DNA of 31,876 nucleotides, from the IMG/VR virus record IMGVR_UViG_3300050821_018098. The stretch is one strand, 5' to 3'. Made by a program: the position numbers and the translations under genes. How positions within the stretch are numbered: position 1 is the stretch's first letter; each line of letters starts with the position of its first letter. This stretch comes from a virus. Its lineage: Duplodnaviria; Heunggongvirae; Uroviricota; Caudoviricetes. The notes beneath the pieces are model-generated. The model was not told where the DNA came from. It did not search any database and worked only from the letters and a program-made list of their open reading frames with translations. This document shows, piece after piece, positions 8,784 through 31,378 of this stretch.

Positions 8784-9257
8784 ATGAATTACGTAAAAAA
8801 TTATCAGGAATTTTTAAATGAAAAGAAGGCACATTTTCTTTCTGGAATAGTTTTGATTTTAGAAAATAAGATACTTTTAGTGAATCCGAAGAAATATAAA
8901 GATGCCCCTCATAAGTGGAGTATACCAAAAGGTCATACTGAAATGGATTATACCAGCTTAGAATCAGCTTTAAAGGAACTACAAGAAGAAGCCAATATAG
9001 ATTTACCTGAAACAAAATTCATTAATTGTAAACAAGGCGTTGTTAACTATATGAGAAATACTGGCCGGGAAAAGAATCTTGAATTTTATATTCTGAAAAT
9101 TAATCGTTCTGTTCTACCTTTCAAACTCTATAATGATATGATACTCAGATTCTATCTAAACAAAGGAGAAATTCATGAGGCCGGATTTTTTTCAAAGACA
9201 GATGCCATGGAACTTATTGAGTCAGAACAAAAATCTATTTTAAATTACATAGATTAA
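8784..9257 (+). CDS. Nudix hydrolase (variant box) with capsid-targeting-like leader
   Basis: Start moved to ATG 8784 (MNYVKNYQEFLNEK); ILLV...WSIPKGHTEMDYTSLESALKELQEEANI is a Nudix box with E>Y, R>K and G>N changes. Confidence 0.8.
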   Translation: MNYVKNYQEFLNEKKAHFLSGIVLILENKILLVNPKKYKDAPHKWSIPKGHTEMDYTSLESALKELQEEANIDLPETKFINCKQGVVNYMRNTGREKNLEFYILKINRSVLPFKLYNDMILRFYLNKGEIHEAGFFSKTDAMELIESEQKSILNYID

Positions 9258-9282
9258 AACCTTTTTTGTAATTTTGCGTATA
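9258..9282 (+). promoter_or_regulatory. putative class-2 promoter (AACCTT-N15-TATA)
   Basis: One-mismatch version of AAACTT-N15-TATA seen before polB, clpP and the HD gene. Confidence 0.3.
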
Positions 9283-9321
9283 AACTTGTTATATTCAAAA
9301 AACATTATTAGTTTTAGGCCT

Positions 9322-10548
9322 ATGAAGACGATAAAAATTATATTAATCTGTATTTTAGCTGGTTTACTTAATATAAGCCAAGCAAAGACTGTAAACTTAG
9401 ATCCTGTTTTAAAGGATTTCTTCGAAACAAAACAATTTAGTAATTGTTACAAATTAGCAAAGGTCATTAATAGTGGCCGATATTCATCTTATACACTTTC
9501 ACCATTTGGTGTGAAATACAAAGAAGATAATGTATACATATCCTCCCAGGCCCAGGAGTTTGAATTCAAATCTCTATACCTTAGTAACAGAGCATCATTC
9601 TATACAAGCTACATAAACAGAACTTCAGAAATACTTAAGTACTTCAAAAAGGATGAAATACACCCACAATTTTTAATCTGGGCTGATAGTATATTTAATA
9701 GTCCTATTCCAGATCAGTTTGGTTTATTAGTTGATAATTATATAGAAAGGAAATATAAAAGAGGCGATGATATTCCAGAAATAAGAGATGAAATGCGGAA
9801 AACAATGAAGTTAAATGAAATTTATAATTTTTTGAAATCTACTGATACTGTAGCTTTACACAAAATATTCGATATAGACAATTCAGAGTTAATTTCTTTA
9901 GTGAAGAATAGAAAAGTGGCTGATTTGATGACTCTTGACTCTAAAGGTTTTAACATTAGAACACATATTGTATACTCTAATAGTAAAGAGGATCCTATAC
10001 AAAACGAATTATATATATTATTCGAAAAATTTAATAAAAGTAAAAGATTAGTAAATAAAGACCAAATAATAAGATTCCTTTATAGGAACACTAAATTTAC
10101 AAAACAAGAAAAAGCTTTTGTTACATTTTATTTTGTTAAAAGTTTTTTAAGATATTGTAATAAAGATAACTCAAAATTCACTGAATATAGTGACATAGAT
10201 AATATTGTTCTATACAAAACAACTGTATGTAACGGATATGCTTTACTATATCAATTTCTTTTAAAAAGTGCTGATGTAGAATGCTATCACATATCTTTAA
10301 AAGAAATTGCTCATGCTAATAATATTGTAGTTATTAATAATAAGGCTTATTATGTTGATGTTACCTGGGGCATTTATTGTAAGGAGATAGGAACTTTTAA
10401 AAAAAGCACTATTAAAAGTACATTCGATTTAGAAATAAATCCTTATGATTATAAAGAAATAAATGATTTTTCATATATCAAATATGTTAATAACATAGAC
10501 GATGCTGTTGGTTTTGTTAGTTATCTAAATAATACATGTAAGAAATAA
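9322..10548 (+). CDS. secreted transglutaminase-like (Cys-His-Asp) protein
   Basis: Start moved to ATG 9322 giving signal peptide MKTIKIILICILAGLLNISQA; C-terminal TVCNGYA...AHANN...YVDVTWG triad. Confidence 0.75.
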   Translation: MKTIKIILICILAGLLNISQAKTVNLDPVLKDFFETKQFSNCYKLAKVINSGRYSSYTLSPFGVKYKEDNVYISSQAQEFEFKSLYLSNRASFYTSYINRTSEILKYFKKDEIHPQFLIWADSIFNSPIPDQFGLLVDNYIERKYKRGDDIPEIRDEMRKTMKLNEIYNFLKSTDTVALHKIFDIDNSELISLVKNRKVADLMTLDSKGFNIRTHIVYSNSKEDPIQNELYILFEKFNKSKRLVNKDQIIRFLYRNTKFTKQEKAFVTFYFVKSFLRYCNKDNSKFTEYSDIDNIVLYKTTVCNGYALLYQFLLKSADVECYHISLKEIAHANNIVVINNKAYYVDVTWGIYCKEIGTFKKSTIKSTFDLEINPYDYKEINDFSYIKYVNNIDDAVGFVSYLNNTCKK

Positions 10549-10577
10549 AAAAGCCCCAGAATGGGGCTTTTTTATTT
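10543..10577. terminator. bidirectional intrinsic terminator
   Basis: Perfect 16-bp inverted repeat AAATAAAAAAGCCCCA-GAA-TGGGGCTTTTTTATTT between convergent genes. Confidence 0.9.
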
Positions 10578-11457
10578 ATACTGGTTTTACTATTATTTGT
10601 AGTTTTACAAATTGTTCAGCTAAGAATTTTGGATCATCAGGCTTATCAGTACCTTTAACATAAGGAGTAGGTCCTACAACACCCTTTGTCTCAGCAACAA
10701 AACCTATTAATTTAGAAAGTTTTGGTAGTGAGGTTTTGAAATAATCAATCATATATTTTTTAAGATTGATTGCTCTATTTTCAGCAAGTTTTTGGTTTCC
10801 TCCAGCATAAGTAGTAGTTACTTGAGAAGCACTACCCAATATCTCCATTGTATATTTATCTGTAGCTCCAGGAGCTTGTAAAGCAGCTTCATGAGCACTA
10901 TAATATACACCAAAATCATCTAATTCTTTATTCAGTTCTACTTTTTTCGCATCATCAATAGTATCTTCGTTTGGTACAAAAGTATCACCTACACTTTTCT
11001 CATATGGTTCTATATCTACTGGTTTAATACTTACAAACCCAGGATTCAAGTTTACTGCCATCCAGGCTCCACCATATTTTTTAACGTCTATATCCATAGC
11101 ACCTTGAACAGTAAATCTACTTACAGTCATTTTCTTATCAGTAGCAGCTTTATTAGCATCAAGTTCTAATATAAAGTTCTCGCCGGATAATAGACTTTTC
11201 CCAGCATCAGCTAAATTAAATTGTGGTTTTGTGAATTTAAGTATATCACCTTCTCTAACAAATTGGAAAGGTACTGCTGTTTGATTGATTGGTTTACCTT
11301 GATACTTGAATATAACATCAGCTACAGCACCTTTACTGAAGTCTGGCGTTTTAGATAAGTCAAGTTCTATAGTAACTAAATTTACATCAAAGTTATCAGT
11401 GGCTTCATTTATTTTAGTAGCCATGAATTGTTCAAATGTTTTAACGTAATTTTTCAT
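10576..11457 (-). CDS. protein with C-terminal OmpA-like (peptidoglycan-binding-fold) domain and capsid-targeting-like leader
   Basis: MKNYVKTFEQFMATKINE leader; MEILGSASQ...GGNQKLAENRAINLKKYM resembles the OmpA_C I-x-G...N-x2-L-x3-R-A-x2-V-x2-Y-L pattern. Confidence 0.6.
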   Translation of the reverse strand: MKNYVKTFEQFMATKINEATDNFDVNLVTIELDLSKTPDFSKGAVADVIFKYQGKPINQTAVPFQFVREGDILKFTKPQFNLADAGKSLLSGENFILELDANKAATDKKMTVSRFTVQGAMDIDVKKYGGAWMAVNLNPGFVSIKPVDIEPYEKSVGDTFVPNEDTIDDAKKVELNKELDDFGVYYSAHEAALQAPGATDKYTMEILGSASQVTTTYAGGNQKLAENRAINLKKYMIDYFKTSLPKLSKLIGFVAETKGVVGPTPYVKGTDKPDDPKFLAEQFVKLQIIVKPV

Positions 11458-11479
11458 GCAATTATTCGATAGTTTTATT

Positions 11480-11487
11480 TATATATC
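11480..11487 (-). promoter_or_regulatory. putative late-promoter motif (GATATATA)
   Basis: Ends 22 nt before ATG 11457. Confidence 0.55.
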
Positions 11488-11915
11488 TATGAACAAAGCT
11501 GTGATTTTAGGATACTTAAAAAGGCATATAGTTCTTTTGAATTTTCTGAGGAGATAAAATTTGTATGTTCAAAATACATATTTTTATATTCTTTTTCTAT
11601 ATCAACAATATTAATACTAAAATGGTTATCTATCTGATTGAAAGTAAAATAAAAAGGTTTAGATATATTTACAAAATAATATTTTGCGAAAGTATTATAT
11701 CTATAATCTGTATTTGTAAGTATATACCGAAAATTATCGATCCATATTCTGTTAGAACAATGAGTCTTTTCAAAGGCTATCAAGGGAATATCTACTCTCT
11801 GTTCTACTTTAGTATTAAAAAAGCCTATTCTATTAATTGTATTATTCAATATCTTTTCATAAACTTTTCCTACTCCAGATAGCTCACTTAACAATATCAT
11901 ACTACTCAGCAGCAA
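11487..11915 (-). CDS. hypothetical protein, paralog of 8290..8721
   Basis: Same shared blocks as 8290..8721; true start probably the second Met (MILLSEL). Confidence 0.7.
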   Translation of the reverse strand: MLLSSMILLSELSGVGKVYEKILNNTINRIGFFNTKVEQRVDIPLIAFEKTHCSNRIWIDNFRYILTNTDYRYNTFAKYYFVNISKPFYFTFNQIDNHFSINIVDIEKEYKNMYFEHTNFISSENSKELYAFLSILKSQLCS

Positions 11916-12240
11916 ACATTATGAAACCGTTTGATACTAATTTATCTGTATAGGCTTTTTTACTTCCTGCACCGATTTGTTTATCTACAACAATACCATC
12001 TTTAAAATATAATACACTTGGAAGATTACGAACGCCATACTTCTGAGTTGATACTGAATTTATATCAACATCTATTTTAGCTACAATTATTTCATCTTCA
12101 TAAGTACTTGCTAATTCATCAAGAATTGGTGCTATCATAGTACATGGACCACACCACGATGCTCTAAAGTCCACTAATACCGGCTTATCCGAGGCAAGTA
12201 TTTCATTTATATTACTATCATTAATTTCAATCATTTTCAT
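11902..12240 (-). CDS. trxA: thioredoxin
   Basis: VLVDFRASWCGPCTMIAP...KYGVRNLPSVLYFKDG; start set at MKMIEIND (12240). Confidence 0.95.
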   Translation of the reverse strand: MKMIEINDSNINEILASDKPVLVDFRASWCGPCTMIAPILDELASTYEDEIIVAKIDVDINSVSTQKYGVRNLPSVLYFKDGIVVDKQIGAGSKKAYTDKLVSNGFIMFAAE

Positions 12241-12245
12241 AAATT

Positions 12246-12446
12246 TTATTTTTCGTCCCAAGTATGTTTACAATCGTTACAATTACAAACAGAAAGAAAA
12301 TAACCATAACTCATCAATCTACCTTTAATCAATTTTCCTTGAGTTCTTATTATCTTTTTATCTATAGTAATATTTTTTGAATTACAAACATTACATATTT
12401 TAATATTCATATTTTTAAACATCTTAATTTTTAAGCCATTTTTCAT
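12246..12446 (-). CDS. small zinc-ribbon protein
   Basis: CNVC...CNCNDCKHTW. Confidence 0.55.
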   Translation of the reverse strand: MKNGLKIKMFKNMNIKICNVCNSKNITIDKKIIRTQGKLIKGRLMSYGYFLSVCNCNDCKHTWDEK

Positions 12447-12666
12447 TAAATGTATAAAGTTCTAATGTTACAGTATCTCTTACCTTTAATATAATCATAG
12501 GTGCGAATTCTTTTTCTGATATAATAGTGAAACTTTCAAATACATATCCATTAACCATGTTATCTTTAAAATAATCCTCCACTATAGACATATCCAAGTG
12601 ATACTTCATTACGAAGAAAGATCGTTGAATGGTTTCCTTAAATTTTAATTCCTCAATTTTATTCAT
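12424..12666 (-). CDS. hypothetical protein (80 aa)
   Basis: ORF track; within a tightly packed minus-strand run. Confidence 0.6.
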   Translation of the reverse strand: MNKIEELKFKETIQRSFFVMKYHLDMSIVEDYFKDNMVNGYVFESFTIISEKEFAPMIILKVRDTVTLELYTFNEKWLKN

Positions 12667-12674
12667 AGGTTTTT

Positions 12675-13193
12675 TTATTCTAATATTTTTCTGATAACAA
12701 AATCATCAGGGCTTTCATAATCTCCACCATCAATAAATTCCATATTTTTCTCTTTAAGAAATTCAGCAACGGTTCCTATTATTTCGAAACCTTCTCTTTT
12801 GTAAAAATTTAGTGGGGCTCCTTCTTTATCAACGTATGACATTAATTCTTTACAACCAACTTTCTTAGCTTCATCTTCAAGATATTTTAAAACTTCAACA
12901 CCTAAGCCTTTATTTCTATAAACCGGAACAAGTCCAAACCATCCAAGCCATAACGTTTCTGTAGATTCATTCAGTGAATATAATCCACAACATCCTATAG
13001 CTTTATCTTCAGTTTTAATTAATCTAAACTCCCAGAAGTGGAGAGCCCACAGATCCTCAATTACGCCACACCATTCTAAAACAGTTGAATAAAAGATATA
13101 ATCAAAATCTTTTACCAACGGTTTCAATATTGGACCAAATTCATATATATTTCTTGTATTTGAATATTCAATATTTACCATATAACATCCCAT
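12675..13193 (-). CDS. GNAT family N-acetyltransferase
   Basis: IGCCGLY...WFGLVPVYRNKGLGVEVL (motif A, R-x-x-G-x-G)...LNFYKREGF (motif B). Confidence 0.9.
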   Translation of the reverse strand: MGCYMVNIEYSNTRNIYEFGPILKPLVKDFDYIFYSTVLEWCGVIEDLWALHFWEFRLIKTEDKAIGCCGLYSLNESTETLWLGWFGLVPVYRNKGLGVEVLKYLEDEAKKVGCKELMSYVDKEGAPLNFYKREGFEIIGTVAEFLKEKNMEFIDGGDYESPDDFVIRKILE

Positions 13194-13438
13194 TTGGACA
13201 ATTTACCTTTATCATATCCAGCAGTATACATGTTAATTAAGGCTTTTTTTATTTCTTCTGGATTTTCTATACTACCTAAACCAAGTATTAACTCATTAGA
13301 AATTTTTTCTAACACTTCTTCCTGAGTAATATTATGTACATATCCAGGCATATAAGGCTCACCTTCGATACATTTTCTTCTATTAACTTCAAATAATTTT
13401 GAGATGTTAGTTAGAATATCTTTTTTAGTGTTTTTCAT
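13175..13438 (-). CDS. hypothetical protein (87 aa)
   Basis: ORF track; within operon. Confidence 0.6.
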   Translation of the reverse strand: MKNTKKDILTNISKLFEVNRRKCIEGEPYMPGYVHNITQEEVLEKISNELILGLGSIENPEEIKKALINMYTAGYDKGKLSKWDVIW

Positions 13439-13445
13439 TTTTTCA

Positions 13446-14570
13446 TTATATAATTTTGTAATGTTCTTTCAATATTTTACGAGCCTCTATTTCCTCTACA
13501 ATCAATTGTTTTTTACTTCCTTTAATATTAAGTATATCTAAGTGAGCAAATATTTTTAACACGTTTGTTAATTGTGTTTTCGATATTATGAAACCTTGAG
13601 CCTTTGCTAAATCTTCGAAATTCTTAAGCGGTGGTAAATTAGCACCTTTTTTTAAGTGTTTAAATGTGAATACCAAATCTAAAACTTTATCATGAAATTC
13701 CCAAGTTTTATATTGAGTATTTTCTTTAAGTTTTAACTCGTACTCTTGTACAGATTTAGTATTGTAGAGAAATGTGAAGAATATACCAGTGGAAACAAAT
13801 ATCTCAACTACAACAGCACCGATTACAAATATCCAAATGATATTACTATTTTCTGATTTATTTACATCAAGCTCAGTATTTAAATCTTTTTCGTAAACAG
13901 ATATACTCTTATCACGTTCTGATTTAAGTTCTTTTATTTGAGATTCATTATTTTTTATAGTTTCTTTATTACCTTCAATTTGTTTACGATATTGATTTCT
14001 TTCTCGGCTCCATTGAGGTAATTCATCAATTCTTGTTTGTATTGTTAAATTGACATTAAATAACTGTCCATTTTGTTCCTCTATTTTAATAATTTTATCG
14101 TTATAATTTTTACTCAAAGAATCAGAATATATTTTGATATCCTTCTTTGTTTCTGTAACCATTACTTTTTCTTTACTACTCAATTCTTTTGCTCCAGAAA
14201 TACTAAAATAGAAGGATCCTGCAATCATAAGTAATGATGATAAAAAGAGTATTATTAAGCCCTTACCAGCAAAATTAAAATTAGCTTCTACGAAATATTT
14301 GGAGAATTTGGAGTAAATAACTCTTTTAATAATTTCAAACAAAGCTATTGTGAATATAGCAGCACTAATAATAAATACAACAATACCACCTGTAGGTTCT
14401 TCAGCAATCTTTGTGTAAACATCTTTAAAGAAAAAATATCCAAAAAACATAAGAACGCCTTGTAATAAAATAGATATCCAGTATCCTACATCTTTAAGGC
14501 TTTTATATTCTTCAAAAAAAGATTTCTTTTCAACCTTCTTTTTTAAACTTTCGTATTCTTCATGTTTCAT
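13446..14570 (-). CDS. multi-pass membrane protein with long coiled coil
   Basis: Three N-terminal hydrophobic helices, heptad region of about 100 aa, a fourth TM (IIWIFVIGAVVVEIF...) and a possible winged-helix C-terminus. Confidence 0.75.
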   Translation of the reverse strand: MKHEEYESLKKKVEKKSFFEEYKSLKDVGYWISILLQGVLMFFGYFFFKDVYTKIAEEPTGGIVVFIISAAIFTIALFEIIKRVIYSKFSKYFVEANFNFAGKGLIILFLSSLLMIAGSFYFSISGAKELSSKEKVMVTETKKDIKIYSDSLSKNYNDKIIKIEEQNGQLFNVNLTIQTRIDELPQWSRERNQYRKQIEGNKETIKNNESQIKELKSERDKSISVYEKDLNTELDVNKSENSNIIWIFVIGAVVVEIFVSTGIFFTFLYNTKSVQEYELKLKENTQYKTWEFHDKVLDLVFTFKHLKKGANLPPLKNFEDLAKAQGFIISKTQLTNVLKIFAHLDILNIKGSKKQLIVEEIEARKILKEHYKII

Positions 14571-16479
14571 GTGTGTATCTTATATTATTATCAATTACTT
14601 CAATATTTATCACGGTATCCCGAATCATATGTTCTATTATATATTCGGCTAAAGGATTTGTTACTTCATTTTGTATAACTTCAGATACTTTCCAGGCACC
14701 TTTAGATTTATCCTCACATATAGTAGATAATTTTTCGATAAAGTTTTGCTGATATACCAAATCAATATTTTGTATTTCCTTTAATCTAAACTCAATATCA
14801 TTTATTTTATCTTTTACTATATCAGATAGAATCTCTAAACTTAAATTATTGAAATATAAAACATCATCGAGTCTGTTTAACAATTCTGGTGTTAATACCT
14901 TTTTTATTTGTGTACCAACTGACTCAGATGTTTTCACTTCACTACTACCAAAACCCACTGGTTTATAATTAAGTTCTTTTGTACCAATATTTGTTGTGAG
15001 AAGAATTATGGCTTGAGTAAGTCTTGCTTTCTTACCCATACTATCTGTTATAAACCCTTCATCAAGTATTTGAAGTAATAAATTTAAGATTGAACTATGT
15101 GCTAACTCTATTTGATCAAAAAGTATTACACAAGCAGGATGTTTCAATATTTCTCTTACAAGAGGGCTTCCTGCTTCATAACCAACATATCCAGGAGCAC
15201 CACCGGTTAGTTTACTACTGTTCATTGATTCCATGAAGTCTGACATATTGAACCTTACAACTTTTGATTCATCATTCCATAATTCTTTTGCTATTTTATA
15301 AGCTATACTAGTTTTACCGGTACCACCTGGACCAGCTAACAAATAACAAGCTAAAGGTCTATTAGTCGATGATAAACCTGATACTTTTCTTTTTATACTA
15401 TTCATTATAGCTTTTACCGAACTTTCTTGACCACGTAATACTTTATTTATATTATTTTCTATATTATTCCAACGATTGGAGGCTTTACCAATACTCACCC
15501 AATCCAAAGGAAGATTAGCTTGTAAAGCGGTAACTTTTTCTAAATCTTCATTTTTTACTTTTTCCTTTTTTGTTACCAACTTCATTTTCCTAACAGAATC
15601 CTTCAATAATACTTCACATCTTTCAACGGATTCTAAAACATAAGGAACCTCTATCCAATCATGATCCTTTATTATTCGTAATTTCTCTTGTTCCAAATAT
15701 TCTAATTCTATTTCTAAAAGAACAACATCTTTTGGTTTTTGTTGTTTTCTGTTTTTAATTACACCACCAACTTCATCGATAATATCAAAAGCCCCATCAG
15801 GCAAAGCTCTATGTGGTAAATATTTTATAGCAAGATCTACAGCATATTCTAATACTGAATCTGGGTATGTAATACCATGATGTTTCTCATAAATCGATTT
15901 TGACTTTTTAAGAATTTCTATGGTTTGTTTTCTATCGGTTGAAGGAACATCTATTATATTAAATCTTCTAGTAAAGGCACCGTCTTTGGAAAGATATTTC
16001 ATATACTCCTCTTGTGTAGTACAACCGATTAAAACTATTTCATTACTTGTTAAATATGGTTTAATTATATTACCTAGACTCAATGCCTGACTTTTATTTG
16101 CACTAAAGAAAGTATGAATTTCATCAATAAAAAGTATACAGTCCTTACTAGTAATTAAGAATTTCAATAATTTATCAAATTTCTCCTCTAACTCACCACG
16201 AAGTTTAGTACCAGCCATAAGGCCAGCCATATCAAGTTTGAGTATATGTTTAAATTTATGAGCTCTATTTTGATTTAATGTATGAGCGAGACCTTCTATT
16301 AAAGCAGTTTTACCAACACCAGGATCACCAAGTAACAATACATTTCTTTTCTTCCTTCTGGACAAATAAATCAGAAGTTTTTTCATTTCATTTTCCCTGC
16401 CTATTGCTGGATCTATTTTCTTCTCTTCAGCCAGGGCTACAAGATCATCACCATAATTCTTTAATTCACTCTTGTCCAA
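14560..16479 (-). CDS. clpC: ClpC/ClpA-type AAA+ ATPase lacking the N-domain, degenerate second ATPase
   Basis: NBD1 GDPGVGKT, LFIDEIH, FTRRF; UVR-like middle; NBD2 GPGGTGKT, GAPGYVGY, ILFDQIE, VGF loop, ELLNRLD. Confidence 0.9.
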   Translation of the reverse strand: MDKSELKNYGDDLVALAEEKKIDPAIGRENEMKKLLIYLSRRKKRNVLLLGDPGVGKTALIEGLAHTLNQNRAHKFKHILKLDMAGLMAGTKLRGELEEKFDKLLKFLITSKDCILFIDEIHTFFSANKSQALSLGNIIKPYLTSNEIVLIGCTTQEEYMKYLSKDGAFTRRFNIIDVPSTDRKQTIEILKKSKSIYEKHHGITYPDSVLEYAVDLAIKYLPHRALPDGAFDIIDEVGGVIKNRKQQKPKDVVLLEIELEYLEQEKLRIIKDHDWIEVPYVLESVERCEVLLKDSVRKMKLVTKKEKVKNEDLEKVTALQANLPLDWVSIGKASNRWNNIENNINKVLRGQESSVKAIMNSIKRKVSGLSSTNRPLACYLLAGPGGTGKTSIAYKIAKELWNDESKVVRFNMSDFMESMNSSKLTGGAPGYVGYEAGSPLVREILKHPACVILFDQIELAHSSILNLLLQILDEGFITDSMGKKARLTQAIILLTTNIGTKELNYKPVGFGSSEVKTSESVGTQIKKVLTPELLNRLDDVLYFNNLSLEILSDIVKDKINDIEFRLKEIQNIDLVYQQNFIEKLSTICEDKSKGAWKVSEVIQNEVTNPLAEYIIEHMIRDTVINIEVIDNNIRYTHET

Positions 16480-16490
16480 GACCTAAAATT

Positions 16491-21072: not shown

Positions 21073-21522
21073 ATGGAAGTTATTTTTACAAATAAAAAGG
21101 CCCGGTATGAATACGAGTTTATAGAAACCGAAATAGCTGGTATCATGTTACATGGTTCCGAAGTAAAAGCTTTGAGAGAAGGTAAAACCAATATTGATGA
21201 TGCTTACCTAACTATAAAAGATAGCAAAGTAATTATCCAGAAAATGTTTATTGGTGATCAGAAGGTCTCTAATCACACTTCACATGATAACTCCAGGGAC
21301 CGGATTATTCTTATGACTAAGAATCAAAGAAGAAAATGGTTACAAAAGTTGGAAACAAAAGGTTTAACAATTATTCCATACAAAGTTTTCTTTGATGATA
21401 AAAATATTTGTAAAATAGAAGTTGTTTTAGCTAAAGGCAAAAAGCTTCATGATAAGAGAGAATCAATTAAAAGTAAGGATATTGACAGAGACACAAAAAG
21501 AGAATTAAGCAATCTAAATTAA
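21073..21522 (+). CDS. smpB: SsrA-binding protein SmpB
   Basis: NKKARYEY...EIAGIMLHGSEVKALR...RDRIILMTK...GLTIIP...AKGKKLHDKRESIK. Confidence 0.95.
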   Translation: MEVIFTNKKARYEYEFIETEIAGIMLHGSEVKALREGKTNIDDAYLTIKDSKVIIQKMFIGDQKVSNHTSHDNSRDRIILMTKNQRRKWLQKLETKGLTIIPYKVFFDDKNICKIEVVLAKGKKLHDKRESIKSKDIDRDTKRELSNLN

Positions 21523-21527: not shown

Positions 21528-22568
21528 ATGACAAATTCAAAATGGACACACGAAAGTTTGTTGTTGATGGAGAAAATCAACAATCACTTTAATAAACTAT
21601 GTAGTGAGACAAACTATGTAAACAGGCTCGGTGAAGAAAACAATTGGACTTTTACTTATACCGTAAGAGCAGTTGAAGAATATAAGAAATTTTTATTCTT
21701 ATTCGCTATAGATAAAGACCCTGTTTCACCATCACATCCAATAGATGAAGCTTGGCACACACACATTCTCTACACAAAAAATTACTTCAACGAACTTTCC
21801 ACTATTCTTGGTAAAACATTACATCATGAACCAGAAACTGGAAGAAAACAAATCGAAGAGATTACCAAACTAAAAAATTGGTACAAATCTACACTGGAAC
21901 GTTATAACAGTTATTTTGGTGAGGAACCTAAAGATATTTGGACTGTAGTCAAAAAAGATAATTACAGTATTGCTGATGAGGAAAATTTATCAAAAAAAGC
22001 TAATTCTTTACATGGTATGTTGTATGTAAATATTATCCCCATTGTTATTTTAGTAATACTATCCGGTGGATTTGCCTTATTTGGTTTATTCTGGTGGGCT
22101 TTAATTGGTGCTGTAATAGCTACAACTTATTATATTTTTAATGCTATTTCAGAAAACAAAAAAGAACGTGACGATAGAGAGGAAGAAGAACGATTGTCTA
22201 GAATTAGACACACTTCTCATAAAGAAACTCAATATAGCTCAAAAAATAGATATACGGAAGATCTTAATAAAAGGCGTTCTGAAACACCAAAAACTATTGA
22301 GACAATTCATACAACTGAAACAGTTCATCATTCAGGATTGGATCCCGTGACTTCATATCTTTTGATGGATTCCATAATGAATCATAATAATGAAAGTAAT
22401 AATCCAGATACTAGTAATGATTCAGGAAAATCTAGCTGTTCAAGTTGCTCATCAAAATCAAGTTGTTCCAGTTCTTCAGATTCTAGTTCACATTCAAGCT
22501 GCTCTTCAGGTTCTAGCTGTTCAAGTAGTAGTTGTTCATCAGGTTCTAGTTGTGGTGGTGGAGATTAA
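21528..22568 (+). CDS. glycine-rich-domain (DUF1399/TIGR04222-like) membrane protein with Ser/Cys-rich tail
   Basis: EYKKFLFL...PSHPIDEAWHTHILYTKNY...HHEP; TM segment; tail SCSSCSS...SSCGGGD. Confidence 0.75.
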   Translation: MTNSKWTHESLLLMEKINNHFNKLCSETNYVNRLGEENNWTFTYTVRAVEEYKKFLFLFAIDKDPVSPSHPIDEAWHTHILYTKNYFNELSTILGKTLHHEPETGRKQIEEITKLKNWYKSTLERYNSYFGEEPKDIWTVVKKDNYSIADEENLSKKANSLHGMLYVNIIPIVILVILSGGFALFGLFWWALIGAVIATTYYIFNAISENKKERDDREEEERLSRIRHTSHKETQYSSKNRYTEDLNKRRSETPKTIETIHTTETVHHSGLDPVTSYLLMDSIMNHNNESNNPDTSNDSGKSSCSSCSSKSSCSSSSDSSSHSSCSSGSSCSSSSCSSGSSCGGGD

Positions 22569-23819: not shown

Positions 23820-24374
23820 ATGGAAAAACCTGTAAGCAGAAAAATATATCTATCCGAACAATTTACACAAGAAAGTATTAAATTAGTAACAAAAAGTATT
23901 GATGAAATTAATGATAAAGATGATACCCTTGAAAGAGAACTTTTAATTACTTATGGATTAACATATGAAAGAAAACCAATTGAGCTCAAAATCGATTCGT
24001 TTGGTGGGATGGTATATATGGCATTTGGATTAATTTCTGTTTTAGAAAATTCTAAAACACCTATACATACAATTGTTACAGGTTGTGCAATGTCTTGTGG
24101 ATTTTTACTTCTAATTTGTGGTAAGAAAAGATTTGCACATAAACATAGTACTATTTTATATCATCAAGTATCTTCTGGTGGTCGTGGCACATTAAAAGAA
24201 CTCGAAGATAATATTGTTGAAACTAGACGTATCAACAAAGTTCTTAGAGATGTTACGTTAGCTAAAACTAAAATATCAAAAGCAAGATTAAAAGAATGTT
24301 ATGAAAAGAAAATCGATTGGTACATTACCGCTGAAGAAGCTCTTAAACTTGGTATTATTGATGAGATATTATAG
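23820..24374 (+). CDS. clpP: ClpP-family serine protease
   Basis: IDSFGG...GCAMSCG (Ser)...ILYHQ (His)...IDWYITAEEALKLGIIDEI (Asp); triad intact. Confidence 0.92.
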   Translation: MEKPVSRKIYLSEQFTQESIKLVTKSIDEINDKDDTLERELLITYGLTYERKPIELKIDSFGGMVYMAFGLISVLENSKTPIHTIVTGCAMSCGFLLLICGKKRFAHKHSTILYHQVSSGGRGTLKELEDNIVETRRINKVLRDVTLAKTKISKARLKECYEKKIDWYITAEEALKLGIIDEIL

Positions 24375-24575: not shown

Positions 24576-24590
24576 ATTCTTATAAAATGT

Positions 24591-24639
24591 GAAACCCGGT
24601 TGATAGCGACATCTCCGGGTTTCTTGCCATAACAGGCAA
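24591..24639. other. GC-rich double hairpin (terminator or cis-RNA element)
   Basis: GAAACCCGG(24591-24599)/CCGGGTTTC(24615-24623) immediately followed by TTGCC-ATAACA-GGCAA(24624-24639). Confidence 0.55.
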
Positions 24640-24670
24640 ACGATCCTAATTCGTATTTTAAATATTTTAA

Positions 24671-24916
24671 TTAAGCCTCAGTATCTTCAATAACTTTACA
24701 TAGAGAAGCACAATATGTATCCTCTAATAAAAGTAAACTATCATAAAATTCCTTTGCGATAGCTTCTTCTCCTATCTCAAAAAATTTCGAATGATCTATA
24801 ATATCTTCAGTTCTACCTAAATCTTCTTTTTTTGTAGTCCAAACTACACAGTAAGCTCTCCTTGGAGCATTATTTTCATGAACAAAATTTTCAAAAGATT
24901 TTATATAGTTTTTCAT
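24671..24916 (-). CDS. small protein with capsid-targeting-like leader (81 aa)
   Basis: MKNYIKSFENFVHEN N-terminus. Confidence 0.7.
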   Translation of the reverse strand: MKNYIKSFENFVHENNAPRRAYCVVWTTKKEDLGRTEDIIDHSKFFEIGEEAIAKEFYDSLLLLEDTYCASLCKVIEDTEA

Positions 24917-25887
24917 TTCAGTTCTATTTTACTGTATTTATCAAGTTCTTTATCATCAAAATAGAAAAATTGAAAATCAACAATTCTACCATTCCATTTT
25001 GGCTTCCATTTATCTGAAACAAACGATGACTGATATTCTTCTGTGAATTGTAATGATGTTTTGCGAGGCATATTTTCTATAACAACAGCAATATCTAAAT
25101 CGCTATCTGGTTTAGCCGTACCTTTAGCTTCACTACCAACTATAAAGGCTTTTAAAACTTTTTTCTTAATCGGTTTAACTAAATTGAATCTTAATTTCTC
25201 TCTTACCCATTTAAGTGAAGGATATTCTTTAATTTCTTCTGAATATTCTTCTCCATATGTTGGTGTATAAAGGTGATCTAAATCTTCTCCAACATAAGCC
25301 CATACAGTTTTAATTCCTTTTTTAATAAGAGCTTGACATCTATGTGTACCATCTATAATTTGATTGTATTCAGAATCATAAACTATAGGTGGATAATTAT
25401 TATCATTTTCATTTAATAGTTTTACATATTCATTTACAGTATCATCATCAATGGTAAATTCATCTGTATCAATATCACTAATGTTAAGTTTATTAAGAAG
25501 AAAGTAATTAAATTTATAAACTCTATCATGAATATCTGTATCTTCCATATCACCATGAAGGCTCCAGATATAATCATATATGAAAAGGCTATCTACTTTA
25601 TCAGGATATTCTTTAGGATTTGGTCGATCATTATCTAATATATTTGTTACATTATTAAATCCACCTTTCAATCTACCTATTTTCTTAATAACGACACCTT
25701 TAATAAGGTATACTTCATTATCTTTTCTAGTTTCAATTTTATAGGGTCCCCATGATAAACCATTATCAGTAGCTATTAAACTATTTGGATCCATGTTATT
25801 TATTTTTAGCATGTTTTTAACTTGATCAAAATATTCATTTGATGTTTGATTAAATTCAAAATTCTCATATAACTTAATATATCTCAT
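24913..25887 (-). CDS. ParB/Sulfiredoxin-like domain fused to a Pol-beta-superfamily (MNT-type) nucleotidyltransferase
   Basis: YPPIVYD...QIIDGTHRCQAL (ParB/Srx D-G-x-H-R); AFIVGSEAKGTAKPDSDLDIAV (hG[GS]-x9-13-D-h-D); leader MRYIKLYENF. Confidence 0.8.
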   Translation of the reverse strand: MRYIKLYENFEFNQTSNEYFDQVKNMLKINNMDPNSLIATDNGLSWGPYKIETRKDNEVYLIKGVVIKKIGRLKGGFNNVTNILDNDRPNPKEYPDKVDSLFIYDYIWSLHGDMEDTDIHDRVYKFNYFLLNKLNISDIDTDEFTIDDDTVNEYVKLLNENDNNYPPIVYDSEYNQIIDGTHRCQALIKKGIKTVWAYVGEDLDHLYTPTYGEEYSEEIKEYPSLKWVREKLRFNLVKPIKKKVLKAFIVGSEAKGTAKPDSDLDIAVVIENMPRKTSLQFTEEYQSSFVSDKWKPKWNGRIVDFQFFYFDDKELDKYSKIELK

Positions 25888-26458
25888 TCATTTTAAAATA
25901 ATTTTTTAAATATTCCACACAGTATCCTGTAATAGTGTCTTCTATTTCTAGATGTGGTATTTGTGAAACAGGTATTCGTATACTTTGACTATTTGCTTCA
26001 GCATCGGATCCATCACCTTTAGCTTCTACCTGGTCATAATCATTAGAATTTATTTCTAAAAAGTAAATATGATATTTAGCACTACAACCTTTAGAAACAA
26101 ATAATGTATTAACTTCTACAGCTTCAACACTTGGTTTAAGACTCATACCAGTTTCCTCTAGTACTTCTCTAAAAAGGCATTGAATAGGTTTCTCATTCTT
26201 ATTCATTGTACCACTAAGCATGGTCAAATAGTGTTCTTTCGAATCACGACATTTATAAGTAGGTACATATTCATATCTAAACATAACTTCTCCGGTATCA
26301 GAAAGATATATTATAGCAATAATCATATCTGGTTCATCCATATAAATCCAACCTTCAGCTCTTTTTACTTTATAATTACCATCCTGAAATAATATTTCAC
26401 CTGTACCATTAGTTTCAACAGTATTTGTTTTTTTAATATAATCAGAAAATTTATCCAT
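25874..26458 (-). CDS. Nudix hydrolase, ADP-ribose pyrophosphatase-like
   Basis: Canonical box GTMNKNEKPIQCLFREVLEETGM; FRYEYVP, LFVSKGCSAKYHIYF and GDGSDAE resemble NudF-type motifs. Confidence 0.85.
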   Translation of the reverse strand: MDKFSDYIKKTNTVETNGTGEILFQDGNYKVKRAEGWIYMDEPDMIIAIIYLSDTGEVMFRYEYVPTYKCRDSKEHYLTMLSGTMNKNEKPIQCLFREVLEETGMSLKPSVEAVEVNTLFVSKGCSAKYHIYFLEINSNDYDQVEAKGDGSDAEANSQSIRIPVSQIPHLEIEDTITGYCVEYLKNYFKMNEIY

Positions 26459-26462
26459 GTTT

Positions 26463-26470
26463 TATATATG
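26463..26470 (-). promoter_or_regulatory. ATATATA motif with atypically short spacing (CATATATA)
   Basis: Only 4 nt before ATG 26458; may be chance. Confidence 0.25.
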
Positions 26471-26474
26471 TTAT

Positions 26475-29243
26475 TTAAGCACCACGATTTATTGCATAAA
26501 GTTGTTTCAAAGCACTATCTGCTATGATAAGATCTCTACCATCTTTTACAAAATACTGGTTTAACACATCCATGTGTTGACTCTCCGGTAACAAACTATC
26601 CCATATTCTTAAGTTTGTAAGGAGAATGGGTGAACCCATAAGTTTCATGTTTAATCTATCAACAGAGAATGCTTGAGGTTCATCAAATTCAGCTGCTTGA
26701 TTAGCAACTTTAACAAGGTCTGTAGTAGAATAACTCAATGGATTTGCTTCATTTTGTCTTCTGTATAACCAGAATTCAATATGTCTTTCTCTTTGATTTA
26801 ATCGTATCACAACGATATACCAAGTATTAAGTTGTACACTTACATCCCATAACCAACTAAGTTCATTTAATCTGAATTCAATCATACCATCTTCAAAAGC
26901 AATATCATAACCAAGTGGTTGTGTAGGATGTCTATTGTTAAGAAGAACATAACGTTGTTGTGTGATATATTCTTGAATATTGAACCACAATACAAATGTT
27001 CTATTTGTAGAAACAGCTAATTGATCAGAGAATCCATAAGTAATAGCTGCCTGATTAAGTGGGGCCTTGCTTAGATCATAGTAATATCTCGAAACTATAA
27101 CAGAGCTATTATATAAATCATAATCAACAACTAATGTTGGATCAAAAGCTTTACGTATCATATTATCACCTCCTCCTACTATTACTACTTCACCATTTTG
27201 TATTAAAGGTGATAATGCTATATCTGTTAATGTCTCCATTTGTGGAGCTTCAGCACCTTTATTCATTTCTCTTTGTACATCATCACCGAATAAATTATCC
27301 AGACTATTATGTTCAAGAGGTGAGTCAACTTCTGAAGCAAATTCTCTTTTATCGATTTTTGATAGTTTTTGATGTTTTTTAAGAACAACATTATAATAAA
27401 CGGAGCCATTAAGAACATCTTTAAATGCTTGTGCATGTGAGATCATATACCATCTATTAAGAATACAGAAATTAATTATGTCACCGACAGCAGGTCTTTG
27501 TTCGATTCCAAAAGCAATTTTAAATTCATCTCTAGTAATTTGAATTTTAAATACTTCAAAAAGTGCTAAATCAAACATATTAAAGTGAATTGTACTTTCA
27601 GGAAATTTATTATCTGGAACAATAACTTTTATAGTACATCTATCAGAGATGTATAATAACTGTTGTTCATGAAGAACAGCATCCATACCTTTAGCATCAG
27701 GTTTAGTTTTATAGTATTTAACTTCATGACCAAATAAACTTGTATTATCATTAGCTAATTTATTATAAAGATTTAATGGTTGTAAATCATAAACATTCCA
27801 TGTCGGTGTACTAAATGATGAACATGAATCAACTGAAGGGCTTTCCATTACAGAATCACCATCACAATTTTTTGTTCTTGAATTTCTCCAAATATCAGGT
27901 ATATCTGTTACACTATAACATTCATCAACACTAGGATTCAATGTATAGTCACATTGACCTCTAAAACCAAATTTGTTAAGAGTTTTATATGATTTTGTAA
28001 TGTTTTGAAAATCACCCTCCAGCATTAAATCATAAACTTTTATGGCTCCAGTAGTATCTGTACCAGTTCTAATAAATCCGACTTCAATATTTAAGAATCT
28101 TACAGGATCAGGTTTTAATGTTCTTATATTATCGAGTGTTAAAAATTCCCACGGTGTCCAACTATGTTTATAATTACTAGATATTCTATATTTTAAGTCA
28201 AGTGTTCTTTCCGCTATACCAGAAGTACCTGTAGTATCAATTACTATTCCAGCAACGTCGATTTGAAATCCTGTAAATTTAAAAGCTTTGTAAATATCCG
28301 GTGTTTCAAGTATTACAAATTGTCCTGGATATGTTAGATTAACTATTGATTGTGCTCTCTCAATAACAAATTTAGCCGTTAAAAATAAATTGTTAATTTC
28401 AAGACTTTTTATATAACTATCAGGAAGTACTCTATCTACATAACGAATTTCAATAGTATCAGTAAGTCCTATTTCATAACCTAATTGATATTGACTTATA
28501 AATATAAAATCCCCTACGTTAGGTATTGAATCAGCCGTTGTAACAACAAGCCCAAATTTAAAAGCTAAAGGATTAGTGACTAAAATACCATTTAAATAAA
28601 TCTGAACAGTACCTTGTGTCGGATAATCAATATCTATCTGAATAGGTGTAAGATTAGTCGTTAATATATCATAATTACTATCATCAATAGGATCCAAACT
28701 TGTATAAGTTCTATCTCTATCATAGTTAAAATATGGTAATGCTATATACTTAAATTCAAACCAATAATCATATTCATCACAATATTGAGACTGTGGTAAA
28801 TTAACACTTGAAATTGGTGCCCATGTAGTCCATTGCTGTCTATCAGTTGACCATCGCATTTCTTTTTGAAAATATAAAAAGTCTGTATCTCCAGAAATAT
28901 CTTCCAGAATAGAATCCCATTCACAAATATTTTGGAATGGTTCCCTATTACCAAAAACTAAAGATTCGTACTGAACAACTTCATTAGCAAGATTAGATCT
29001 ATAAGCATAGCTATGTGTTCCTGCGGTACCTGAAGTACCAGGGATATAGTAATATCCTGTACGTTCAATATCACCTGGTAATATAGGAGGATCTATTAAA
29101 ATATATTGAAGACCATTGGTACCATTTATCCATGCACCAGGAGCAAACATATACGGTGGTATAGTTACAGATTCTAACTCAAATTTAGCTGTAAATTCCT
29201 GTTTTAAGTTTTTATGTATTTTTGGATCTATGTAAATATACAC
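26475..29243 (-). CDS. large virion protein: T4 gp14-like neck/head-completion domain plus C-terminal LamG/ConA-like domain (922 aa)
   Basis: LFGHEVKYY...LHE...F...ITRDEF...RPAVGDII...WYMI resembles gp14; TFVLWFN...NTWYIVVI...LTNLRIWD resembles LamG. Confidence 0.65.
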   Translation of the reverse strand: MYIYIDPKIHKNLKQEFTAKFELESVTIPPYMFAPGAWINGTNGLQYILIDPPILPGDIERTGYYYIPGTSGTAGTHSYAYRSNLANEVVQYESLVFGNREPFQNICEWDSILEDISGDTDFLYFQKEMRWSTDRQQWTTWAPISSVNLPQSQYCDEYDYWFEFKYIALPYFNYDRDRTYTSLDPIDDSNYDILTTNLTPIQIDIDYPTQGTVQIYLNGILVTNPLAFKFGLVVTTADSIPNVGDFIFISQYQLGYEIGLTDTIEIRYVDRVLPDSYIKSLEINNLFLTAKFVIERAQSIVNLTYPGQFVILETPDIYKAFKFTGFQIDVAGIVIDTTGTSGIAERTLDLKYRISSNYKHSWTPWEFLTLDNIRTLKPDPVRFLNIEVGFIRTGTDTTGAIKVYDLMLEGDFQNITKSYKTLNKFGFRGQCDYTLNPSVDECYSVTDIPDIWRNSRTKNCDGDSVMESPSVDSCSSFSTPTWNVYDLQPLNLYNKLANDNTSLFGHEVKYYKTKPDAKGMDAVLHEQQLLYISDRCTIKVIVPDNKFPESTIHFNMFDLALFEVFKIQITRDEFKIAFGIEQRPAVGDIINFCILNRWYMISHAQAFKDVLNGSVYYNVVLKKHQKLSKIDKREFASEVDSPLEHNSLDNLFGDDVQREMNKGAEAPQMETLTDIALSPLIQNGEVVIVGGGDNMIRKAFDPTLVVDYDLYNSSVIVSRYYYDLSKAPLNQAAITYGFSDQLAVSTNRTFVLWFNIQEYITQQRYVLLNNRHPTQPLGYDIAFEDGMIEFRLNELSWLWDVSVQLNTWYIVVIRLNQRERHIEFWLYRRQNEANPLSYSTTDLVKVANQAAEFDEPQAFSVDRLNMKLMGSPILLTNLRIWDSLLPESQHMDVLNQYFVKDGRDLIIADSALKQLYAINRGA

Positions 29244-29267
29244 GAATAGATTTTTATTTTCTTACAT

Positions 29268-29275
29268 TATATATC
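29268..29275 (-). promoter_or_regulatory. putative late-promoter motif (GATATATA)
   Basis: Ends 24 nt before GTG 29243. Confidence 0.55.
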
Positions 29276-29278
29276 CGA

Positions 29279-29303
29279 AAACTTTCAATGTAATACTGAT
29301 ATA
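29279..29303 (+). promoter_or_regulatory. putative class-2 promoter (AAACTT-N15-TATA)
   Basis: AAACTT TCAATGTAATACTGA TATA, ending 19 nt before ATG 29323; back-to-back with the late motif. Confidence 0.4.
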
Positions 29304-29322
29304 AAACTAAAATGATATATTT

Positions 29323-29958
29323 ATGGATACTATTACAATTCCTAATTTGTACGAAATTTTAGAAGGATTTAATTTAGAGTCAGCTTATTCATATGTATTA
29401 AGAAATAATCTTGGTAACAATTTACCATATCATAATTTTGGTCACATAGAAAATGTTACTCTATTTGCATATATGGGATGTATTCATGAATCTATCAGTG
29501 GTGAAATTACTAGAAATATTTTACTTGCTGCTTTATTCCATGATTTCAATCATTCTGGAGGTAAACTTAAAGATATCGAAAATATAACTCTTGCTAAGGC
29601 CGGATTAAATGACTACTTAATAGAATCAAATGACACAGAAACTAAATTAGAATTTGTAAATTATTTGATTGATATAACAGAGTTTCCTTATACAATAGAA
29701 ACATCAAAATTGACTATTCATCAAAAAATACTTAGGGATGCTGATATTATTCAAAGTTTCTTTCTTAACAATTATATGCAGGATGTAGTACTTGGTCTGG
29801 CTAAAGAAATGAATAAAACTCCCGAAGAGACCGTAGATGGACAATTGAATTTCATATCAAATTTATCCTTTGGAACAGAATATGCTAACAAATTATATAA
29901 TGAAAGAAAGTTAGATATTCTTTCCAATTTGATTCTAATACAAAGATTTTTGAAATAA
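29323..29958 (+). CDS. HD-domain metal-dependent phosphohydrolase (class I PDE-like motifs)
   Basis: LPYHNFGH...AALFHDFNHSGG...ILRDADI. Confidence 0.85.
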   Translation: MDTITIPNLYEILEGFNLESAYSYVLRNNLGNNLPYHNFGHIENVTLFAYMGCIHESISGEITRNILLAALFHDFNHSGGKLKDIENITLAKAGLNDYLIESNDTETKLEFVNYLIDITEFPYTIETSKLTIHQKILRDADIIQSFFLNNYMQDVVLGLAKEMNKTPEETVDGQLNFISNLSFGTEYANKLYNERKLDILSNLILIQRFLK

Positions 29959-29963
29959 GTTAT

Positions 29964-30791
29964 CTACTTATCTTTCTTGTTTATTCCATGTATTGTAATG
30001 GTTTGTGCATCACTCTTACCAGCATTTATAATTACGTCAAATGTTATATCTTGATTAACCAATTTTTCTATTGCACTCATTACTTTTGAAACTTCTGAGC
30101 CATCTTGTACCATTGTCATACCACCCTCATTAATTTGAGTTTGATCATTTTTAGATTCTTTGATAAAAGTCTTGAAATCTTTTACTTTGTAATTTTCATT
30201 CTGTAATTTCTTTCTAGCATCCATAGTCATACCAGCATTTTCTCTTCTTTTTATTCTGATAGGATCAAACCCAGTTTCATATTGTTTACCAACTAAAACT
30301 TCAGCAACCATACCTTCAGGTAAACCTTCTGTACAATTACCACCACTATCCACACCTGAAGTCTCCCAACCAAACTTTAATACTTTATTCTTATTATCAA
30401 ATGGTATAATATCAACTACCTCAGCCCAACTAAAAGATATAAGTTCGGCATTAGGTTTAAATGATTTCAATCTTTTAATAGCTTCACCTATTGTTATAGC
30501 TTTAACATTACACTGAAATCTTTGTGTTGGAATAAAAGCTTTATCATAATATTCACCAGGTACTTTTTCAACAATTTCACCAGACATTGCATATGGTAAA
30601 CCAACAAAATCTGAGTTATCTTTATCTTCTGAATAATCTATACCATCATAGGTAAGACCATATGTTTCAATATTTTGATAACCTAAACCTGTAACAATAG
30701 AAGCCGAATTTCTACCACCATCATCATGAATAATCATCCATCCTTTAGGATCAAATTGTTCTAGTTTAATAATTGCTTCAGCTGCTGTCAT
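29964..30791 (-). CDS. hypothetical protein with internal duplication and internal leader-like motif (275 aa)
   Basis: TAAEAIIKLEQFDP and TIGEAIKRLKSFKP repeats; KVKDFKTFIKES...INE near the C-terminus. Confidence 0.7.
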   Translation of the reverse strand: MTAAEAIIKLEQFDPKGWMIIHDDGGRNSASIVTGLGYQNIETYGLTYDGIDYSEDKDNSDFVGLPYAMSGEIVEKVPGEYYDKAFIPTQRFQCNVKAITIGEAIKRLKSFKPNAELISFSWAEVVDIIPFDNKNKVLKFGWETSGVDSGGNCTEGLPEGMVAEVLVGKQYETGFDPIRIKRRENAGMTMDARKKLQNENYKVKDFKTFIKESKNDQTQINEGGMTMVQDGSEVSKVMSAIEKLVNQDITFDVIINAGKSDAQTITIHGINKKDK

Positions 30792-30812
30792 TTATTTTGT
30801 ATGAATTTTACT

Positions 30813-30820
30813 TATATATT
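30813..30820 (-). promoter_or_regulatory. putative late-promoter motif (AATATATA)
   Basis: Ends 21 nt before ATG 30791. Confidence 0.55.
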
Positions 30821-30835
30821 CTATTTGATAACTGT

Positions 30836-31378
30836 TTATGATTTTTTACTTAAAAGTTCCGTAAGTTTATCAGAACTTAATTTAGCTCTCACATCGTCCG
30901 GCTCCCATCTATTACAACAAGCATTAGGATGTATTAGTCCTGGTGTATCACCTTCAGAATCTTTATTAACTCTTTCACAATCAAGATTTTTTATATCAAA
31001 ATATTCACATCTTTTACAACTGAAACCTTCTTCATTTTCAAAATAACCAGCCTGTTCTTTTGTTATTACACCAATATAAGGTATTTCTGGGGTATTTTCA
31101 CCTACAGGATCCATATGTATCCAAAATCCACATGAACCATAAGGTTTAATATTTTCGTTTGGCCCAAGGACTTTACATTTAGTAGAATTAGGAAAATCTT
31201 TATTTTTTGAAAAAACACATTTGTCACAAGTATATTTAGTTTCAGGTCTAAAAATATATAAAACAGCTTCTTTTGGAATTTTATGAACAGTTTCGACAGT
31301 TGATGATTTTTCATTTATCATTACATTTTCCTTAATAAAATCTTCAAATTTTATAACGTGTTGATTTTCTTTTTTCAT
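30836..31378 (-). CDS. tandem HiPIP-like four-Cys (putative 4Fe-4S) protein with capsid-targeting-like leader
   Basis: KEAVLY...CDKC-x13-C-x14-CGFW and KEQAGY...CKRC-x9-C-x20-CNRW; leader HVIKFEDFIKE...INE. Confidence 0.65.
   Translation of the reverse strand: MKKENQHVIKFEDFIKENVMINEKSSTVETVHKIPKEAVLYIFRPETKYTCDKCVFSKNKDFPNSTKCKVLGPNENIKPYGSCGFWIHMDPVGENTPEIPYIGVITKEQAGYFENEEGFSCKRCEYFDIKNLDCERVNKDSEGDTPGLIHPNACCNRWEPDDVRAKLSSDKLTELLSKKS

Follow-up and report, generated by a model that had tools for sequence, protein, structure and literature searches.

The capsid targeting sequence (CTS) has been known in bacteriophage T4 and its close T-even relatives since 1996, when Mullaney and Black reportedly described it for the T4 internal proteins; the rule by which it works has, to our knowledge, never been settled. 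Here we analysed a 31,876-nucleotide stretch of DNA of a tailed phage (the window), which forms the first part of a 166.9-kb IMG/VR virus record (IMGVR_UViG_3300050821_018098), and found that several unrelated proteins encoded in it share an N-terminal leader, which is probably a prohead-targeting propeptide of the T4 CTS type. Window positions equal record positions plus 165, and the first 165 bases of the window lie outside the record. In T4, the CTS is carried by IPI, IPII, IPIII, and Alt (reviewed in PMC9026906 and PMC3012670). Targeting of IPIII relies on its residues 4 and 7 and processing on residues 8 and 10, and Asp at position 10 stops the cutting and leaves the targeting intact (PMC9026906). 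The genes ipII and ipIII both begin with MKTYQEFIAE, as a preliminary description of this DNA had stated and the checked sequences confirm, and among four same-strand T4 matches to the core pattern the only N-termini are these two. The conserved leader positions [FY]-x-x-[FY]-[ILV]-x-E coincide with positions 4, 7, 8, and 10 of IPIII.

The two phages are alike in having an N-terminal tag of 10–19 residues on unrelated proteins, with two aromatic residues three apart, often followed by [IL]-x-E. The portal is of the T4 type, the capsid protein of the Gp23 type, and the protease of the gp21 family in both; the tagged genes probably have a late-gene context here too, and one putative cargo has a predicted ADP-ribosyltransferase fold, the fold of Alt in T4. 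New with respect to the T4 CTS are an extended dialect (2–3 residues longer in front, M-x-Y-[VIL]-K), a much larger number (at least 12 strict and ~25 total copies in 167 kb, where T4 has a handful), attachment to enzymes instead of small basic proteins, and a lineage in which the protease and the scaffold form one polypeptide, the scaffold consisting of 14-residue repeats with the same heptad as the leader.

Among other systems, the encapsulin cargo-loading peptide is also a short terminal tag steering unrelated enzymes into an HK97-fold shell; unlike the present leader, it is usually C-terminal, binds the shell, and is not cleaved, and its cargo stays undelivered to other cells. The giant phages phiKZ, 201phi2-1, and SPN3US have a gp21-related protease cutting after Glu and dozens of ejected head-internal proteins, and the propeptides of their inner-body and ejection proteins are processed by gp175/gp245 (PMC5694885, PMC7411985). 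These propeptides, however, are mostly longer than 100 residues and dissimilar in sequence, and their site is [SAG]-x-E or A-x-E; the capsid genes of those phages are of another lineage, and a short common tag is undescribed there. ART-PolyVal polyvalent proteins, proposed to be injected (PMC7824862), contain the same kinds of effector domains, including the fold of the tagged protein at record 124398, but as many domains on one giant chain, whereas each effector here is a separate small tagged gene. The literature on "capsid targeting" that we found concerns T4, SPN3US, P1, and P22, and none of it ties a CTS to huge or metagenomic phages.

Shared N-terminal leader on unrelated proteins

In a six-frame scan of the 166.9-kb record, the strict motif [YF][VIL]K.[FY][EQ].[FY] gave 13 matches, 12 of them located 2–3 residues past the Met opening an open reading frame (ORF). 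A position matrix built from the strict-motif N-termini as seeds showed the motif to be N-terminus-specific, with 12 N-termini scoring at least 10 bits as against 0.22 expected from internal positions, and recovered two non-seed genes. The grammar [FYW]xx[FYW][ILVM]xE, derived from T4 and independent of the seed leaders, begins within residues 1–19 in 11 out of 220 predicted proteins (2.2 expected; p 1.7e-5). When the looser leader family is included, with the forms MKF[FI]KK[FY]DDF and M-x-K-F-[ST]-[DE]-[YL]-I-K-E, ~25 of the 220 predicted genes are tagged; the latter, short form, seen in the window as MDKFSDYIKK, occurs on three further genes beyond it (FSDYIKE, FTDYIKE, and FSELIKE). The [FY] pair three residues apart is invariant in all 12 strict leaders. 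In 133 distinct leaders of other contigs, whose [FY] positions were set by the search pattern and hence provide no independent test of the aromatics, [ILVM]-x-E follows the leader immediately in 29, compared with a background of 2%.

All seven N-termini quoted in the preliminary description were found in their places in the sequence, and the copy that it reported inside the gene at 29964–30791 does fit the heptad. Its list of genes lacking the leader proved right for polB, the ClpC-like ATPase, ClpP, SmpB, thioredoxin, and GNAT, whose identities were confirmed by Pfam; the HD label on the same list had no Pfam match. Two additional leader copies are short remnant ORFs, one of which is mended by deleting one homopolymer base: at record 93982–94234 (L009:583–835), between a 530-residue ORF and the head-closure gene, the strict leader gene no. 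13 (MGKYVKTFEKFY) meets a stop after 12 codons, and deletion of one T of an A5/T4 run yields FEKFINE and a fusion with the downstream 76-residue ORF; the break may stem from a sequencing error, mark a pseudogene, or reflect a programmed shift. A pair of paralogous 142–143-residue genes (window 8290–8721 and 11487–11915, both on the minus strand) stands on either side of the first leader genes, and one of the two proteins contains GKLYQEFITQ at residue 11, a stretch close to the T4 CTS that is not N-terminal and ends in Gln.

The bodies following the leader fall in unrelated families: three Nudix proteins, two nucleotidyltransferases (one with a weak ParB-like region), a protein with an OmpA-like region, one that joins a deoxyribosyltransferase-like part to a Nudix part, an ankyrin protein, and a number of proteins without a family, such as the 81-residue protein at 24671–24916, which had no match to a known family. 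The leader is a modular tag, separate from the protein bodies. For the Nudix gene at 8784, the start codon is the Met at 8784 rather than the ATG at 8745 upstream; the AlphaFold2 (AF2) model shows the fold from ~residue 15 at a predicted local distance difference test (pLDDT) score of >90 and residues 1–10 at 53, and orthologues down to 35% identity retain a leader-like N-terminus. The labels of cell-wall-binding and Fe–S proteins given earlier to two tagged bodies are backed by weak matches: the OmpA-like region (1.4e-4; 22.6 bits) falls under the Pfam cut-off of 27.2 bits, and HiPIP is an Atlas lead only (score, 0.87) for the 180-residue protein at 30836–31378, which has no Pfam match.

The tagged 142-residue protein at record 124398 shows weak PARP and Tpt1 matches and no sequence kinship to Alt, and its structure neighbours in the Atlas are DarT, PARP, Tpt1, and Arr (TM, 0.5–0.6). 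A word-based search for homologues found only the protein itself, and the family came from an exhaustive search, in which the leader was missing in 113 of 116 small homologues and the ADP-ribosyltransferase-fold domain recurred within 1366- and 4167-residue proteins carrying ART-PolyVal.

Upstream element shared with structural genes

The heptanucleotide ATATATA occurs before start codons in two sharp peaks, at −28 (~37 genes) and at −11/−12 (9 genes). Among the genes of the −28 class are those for the portal, protease-scaffold, capsid, tail tube, head closure, and head–tail adaptor. The element precedes 16 of 25 leader genes compared with 32 of 195 other genes (odds ratio, 9; p 1.3e-6), and the leader genes without it are mostly directly downstream of an element-bearing one. 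The preliminary description had noted the element at structural-gene spacing before four genes, 8784, 11457, 30791, and 31378, where it is indeed present at −28/−29, and the enrichment of leaders among element-bearing genes, for which it proposed a test, holds for the whole record. We infer from this sequence context that ATATATA may be a late promoter.

The close-spacing class (8–16 nt before ATG) comprises nine genes of the record, six of them leader genes, and would give leaderless or near-leaderless mRNAs. Close spacing is also found before 28 of the 133 leaders in other contigs, many of which are preceded by ATATATA at −11/−12 or −28. At record 124379–124398, two leader genes diverge with their start codons 18 nt apart; the centre of the spacer is the palindromic TATATATA, and the element stands 12 nt before each ATG.

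Protease-scaffold and capsid genes

The region at record 96170–102052 encodes a T4-type portal (Portal_T4, 2e-45), a 708-residue protein, and a Gp23-type capsid protein (Gp23, 7e-31). The N-terminal 200 residues of the 708-residue protein (record 98064–100190) weakly match Peptidase_S77 (T4 gp21) and S80 (phiKZ gp175); it has 1503 homologues, many with PF03420 or PF20034, and had no match in a sequence search of the PDB. The phage PTm1 shares the gene order of portal, protease-scaffold, and capsid, its middle gene being annotated as scaffold and protease. The 708-residue protein is a protease fused to a scaffold, which consists of 14-residue repeats followed by an acidic stretch, and a gp21-family prohead protease, which the preliminary description had proposed to look for elsewhere in the genome, is located between the T4-type portal and the Gp23-type capsid gene. 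At its N-terminus, the protein contains a conserved I-L-E, comparable to LIE-9 of T4 gp21. The capsid propeptide terminates in a Glu that is invariant across five relatives, always in the form [LIV]-x-E, and that adjoins the residues aligning with the start of mature T4 gp23.

Likeness of the leader to the scaffold repeat and the capsid propeptide

The heptad [FYW]xx[FYW][ILVM]xE is present in 36 copies in the predicted proteome, 11 of which are N-terminal leaders and eight of which belong to the repeats of the protease-scaffold protein, which makes up 1.5% of all proteome residues. In 120 scaffold homologues, there are 8–16 heptad copies each, with the consensus YSEY[IL]AE (YQEFIAE in the T4 CTS), and the repeats contain one [ILV]-x-E per 14 residues. 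In addition, a tagged 124-residue protein (record 156397–156771) has, behind its leader, a stretch that copies the capsid N-arm (GY...GMGAVVSPG...GSGDFG) and then a basic tail. Its alignment with the capsid protein takes in the leader and spans the last part of the propeptide and the following N-arm (E, 2e-14 in its own phage; 3e-15, gap-free, in a 640-kb relative). Its leader coincides with the conserved W-[MV]-x-E-Y-A-E-[YM] helix just ahead of the maturation site, and the protein looks like a small capsid-associated paralogue. No earlier description of the scaffold-repeat identity or of the capsid-propeptide paralogue was found.

Because the scaffold repeat has the same heptad and the 124-residue protein is a capsid-propeptide paralogue, the tag is suggested to dock in the manner of the capsid propeptide, onto a scaffold of similar helices. 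We tentatively consider, as a possibility that falls somewhat short of an even chance, that the leader copies both the 14-residue scaffold repeat and the final capsid-propeptide helix, so that the cargo would enter the prohead by co-assembly with the scaffold and be freed by the cut that dismantles the scaffold. In that case, sequence alone could reveal the injected proteome of hundreds of uncultivated T4-type phages, the injected set of the present phage would comprise about one-tenth of its genes, chiefly nucleotide-acting enzymes, and the tag dialect should co-vary with the scaffold repeat. PTm1 and the Chryseobacterium phage MA9V-2, both without the leader, do not have the heptad in their scaffolds, and the PTm1 repeat differs (FTKELSE); a scan of PTm1 with the pattern of this repeat found three copies in the scaffold and one other place, with no tag dialect of PTm1, a result that is neither for nor against mimicry of the scaffold repeat by the tag. 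The likeness among the tag, the scaffold repeat, and the capsid propeptide also suggests a simple testable rule for the action of the T4 CTS.

Source of the record and distribution of the leader in other phages

The 166.9-kb record has a G+C content of 29% and a completeness of 29% (CheckV). Its DNA polymerase and capsid protein are nearest to those of LR7565xx "uncultured phage" genomes of 636–735 kb, with a more remote likeness to Lak megaphages and the Tenacibaculum phage PTm1; on account of these relatives, the record is regarded as a fragment of a huge phage, the host of which probably belongs to Bacteroidota.

The relative LR756504 has 15 N-terminal leader copies (MKYLKxFExF), and near-complete genomes of 430–676 kb have 9–25 strict copies, as compared with 0–2 for the reversed pattern. 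In IMG/VR, the pattern M-K-Y-x-K-x-[FY]-E-x-[FY] matched at least 120 stretches (24 with the reversed pattern), the first 80 of which contained 90 complete ORFs, 86 of them of 60 residues or longer. A Gp23 gene was found on 22 of 40 carrier contigs (>56 kb, mostly 10–50% complete), the summed completeness of which predicts ~17 such genes if there is one per genome, and on none of 24 reversed-pattern contigs, which are smaller than the carriers. Judged by these scans, the leader is widespread among uncultivated Gp23-type phages. In the uncultured Lak-A1, the strict and core patterns were not in excess of the reversed control.

Proposed pathway and alternative explanations

Since every computational check proposed in the preliminary description came out favourable, the interpretation of the shared N-terminus as a T4-style capsid-targeting leader is well supported in silico, and, by analogy with T4, the leader probably marks enzymes that are shipped into the host with the DNA. 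In the pathway envisaged, the tagged genes would be transcribed late, alongside the structural genes, and the amphipathic leader of 10–18 residues (two aromatics three apart, usually with [ILV]-x-E next) would dock the protein on the scaffold core of the assembling head, as its likeness to the scaffold repeat and the last capsid-propeptide helix suggests. The scaffold-fused gp21-family protease would then cut after the leader Glu while dismantling the scaffold, and the freed enzyme would remain in the head with the DNA until its ejection into the next host. Of this pathway, we infer that the leader binds and is cut off, that the cargo is kept in the head and ejected, and that it acts in the host. 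Injected proteins shape the first minutes of infection, and the set is known for only a few cultured phages. If the above interpretation is true, the tag predicts the injected set in huge uncultivated phages of 400–700 kb, points to candidate counter-defence enzymes (Nudix, nucleotidyltransferase, and ADP-ribosyltransferase fold), and offers a second, naturally diverse targeting tag for the packaging of foreign proteins, a use that the T4 CTS already serves.

Several points weigh against this interpretation. With respect to the leader itself, about one-third of the copies have no obvious [ILV]-x-E site nearby, one has Asp in place of Glu (FIND), and those of LR756504 often run into acidic stretches instead of a clean site. 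As to the cargo, one tagged protein has 735 residues, and at least 25 tagged genes on 29% of a genome would amount to many more cargo kinds than any studied phage is known to have. The protease domain of the phage itself is below the Pfam cut-offs (16–21 bits), the Glu specificity of the protease is deduced from conserved sites, and the sole basis of the late-promoter assignment of ATATATA is its location before structural genes. The contigs serving as control for the association with Gp23 were of smaller size, and the leader was not in excess of the reversed control in six cultured relatives, namely Tenacibaculum phages PTm1 and pT24, Chryseobacterium phage MA9V-2, Flavobacterium phage MaF61, Synechococcus phage S-PM2, and Methylophilales phage Melnitz-2.

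The leader might target the prohead as proposed, with the cargo acting within the head, where it would help in assembly or core building, condense the DNA, or balance charge, and being then degraded or left behind. Such a fate has a precedent in T4, where the scaffold and two core proteins, gp67 and gp68, pass into the prohead and are cleaved into peptides (PMC5694885), and would suit the tagged proteins that are very acidic or without an enzyme domain (pI, 4.1–4.7), including the acidic 202-residue protein at record 43002, as well as the long acidic runs behind the LR756504 leaders, reminiscent of the gp67 tail, and the structural appearance of the tagged capsid-propeptide paralogue. We nevertheless regard it as unlikely, in view of the many tagged proteins that are intact enzymes without an evident role in the capsid (the three Nudix proteins, two nucleotidyltransferases, the ADP-ribosyltransferase fold, and the deoxyribosyltransferase-like protein) and of the occurrence of the ADP-ribosyltransferase-fold domain also in ART-PolyVal proteins, for which injection has been proposed (PMC7824862).

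Quite unlikely, too, is a role of the leader as a docking helix for a partner other than the capsid, such as a phage chaperone, a modifying enzyme, a host hub, or the phage's ClpC-like ATPase and ClpP, for which the leader would be a degron. The phage does encode a ClpC-like ATPase and ClpP; however, the leader fits the T4 CTS at the functionally mapped positions, is usually followed by the same type of site as that at the end of the capsid propeptide, matches the scaffold repeat, and is associated with Gp23-type phages and with the promoter-like element of structural genes.

It is highly improbable that the conserved start is a signal at the RNA or DNA level, either one that enhances translation starts on late, possibly leaderless mRNAs or a joint at which recombination shuffles genes. 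The frequency of leaders among the close-spaced ATATATA genes of the record and of other contigs would fit the former, and the known plasticity of T-even internal-protein loci the latter. In the 133 leaders of other contigs, however, synonymous codons are mixed (TAT 82 / TAC 51), and I, L, V, or M stands at position 4, encoded by TTA, ATT, ATA, GTA, and others; hence, it is the peptide rather than the RNA that is under selection. Substitutions at the protein level are conservative (Y/F and I/L/V), structural genes with the same upstream element do not have the leader, and homologous recombination would require longer and more uniform stretches than those encoding the leader. A recognition tag for a radical-SAM enzyme was rejected, as the 166.9-kb fragment has no radical-SAM gene.

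Features and neighbouring genes of the window

The tagged genes of the window and their upstream elements are listed in Table 1.

Table 1. Leader genes and ATATATA elements in the window (window positions)
Feature	Position	Strand	Basis or remark
ATATATA promoter-like element	8756..8762	+	28 nt before the 8784 start; spacing as for portal, protease, and capsid genes
Nudix hydrolase, 157 residues, leader MNYVKNYQEFLNE	8784..9257	+	Pfam NUDIX 4e-10
293-residue protein, leader MKNYVKTFEQFMATKINE, C-terminal OmpA-like region	10576..11457	-	Top matrix score, 27 bits
ATATATA element at −29 of gene 11457	11480..11486	-	Upstream scan
81-residue protein, leader MKNYIKSFENFVHE, heptad FENFVHE	24671..24916	-	Position matrix
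324-residue protein, leader MRYIKLYENF, weak ParB-like region and nucleotidyltransferase domain	24913..25887	-	Pfam NTP_transf_2 2e-8, Polbeta 9e-7, ParBc_2 0.007
Second Nudix protein, 194 residues, short leader form MDKFSDYIKK	25874..26458	-	Pfam NUDIX 5e-5
ATATATA element of the close-spacing class, 11 nt before the start of gene 26458	26463..26469	-	Upstream scan
275-residue protein, internal leader-like stretch NYKVKDFKTFIKE...INE, residues ~199–220	29964..30791	-	Heptad FKTFIKE at residue 206
ATATATA element at −28 of gene 30791	30813-30819	-	Upstream scan
180-residue cysteine-rich protein, leader HVIKFEDFIKE...INE from residue 7	30836..31378	-	Sequence read
ATATATA element at −28 of gene 31378	31400-31406	-	Upstream scan

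Two large ORFs of the window (4096–6945 and 26475–29243) had no PHROGs or Pfam match; they bear the ATATATA element at −29/−31 and are probably structural. A ClpC/ClpB-like double AAA+ ATPase (14560–16479), SmpB (21073–21522), and ClpP (23820–24374), none more than 10 kb from the others, form a protein-quality-control set. The ORF crossing the start of the window (3–569, minus strand) has a zinc-finger-like N-terminal part with the pattern CxxC...C and a basic tail, and may encode a transposase or a DNA-binding protein. The 346-residue protein encoded at 21528–22568 (plus strand) has a long C-terminal tail of low complexity that is rich in Ser and Cys (SSCSSCSSKSSCSSS...).

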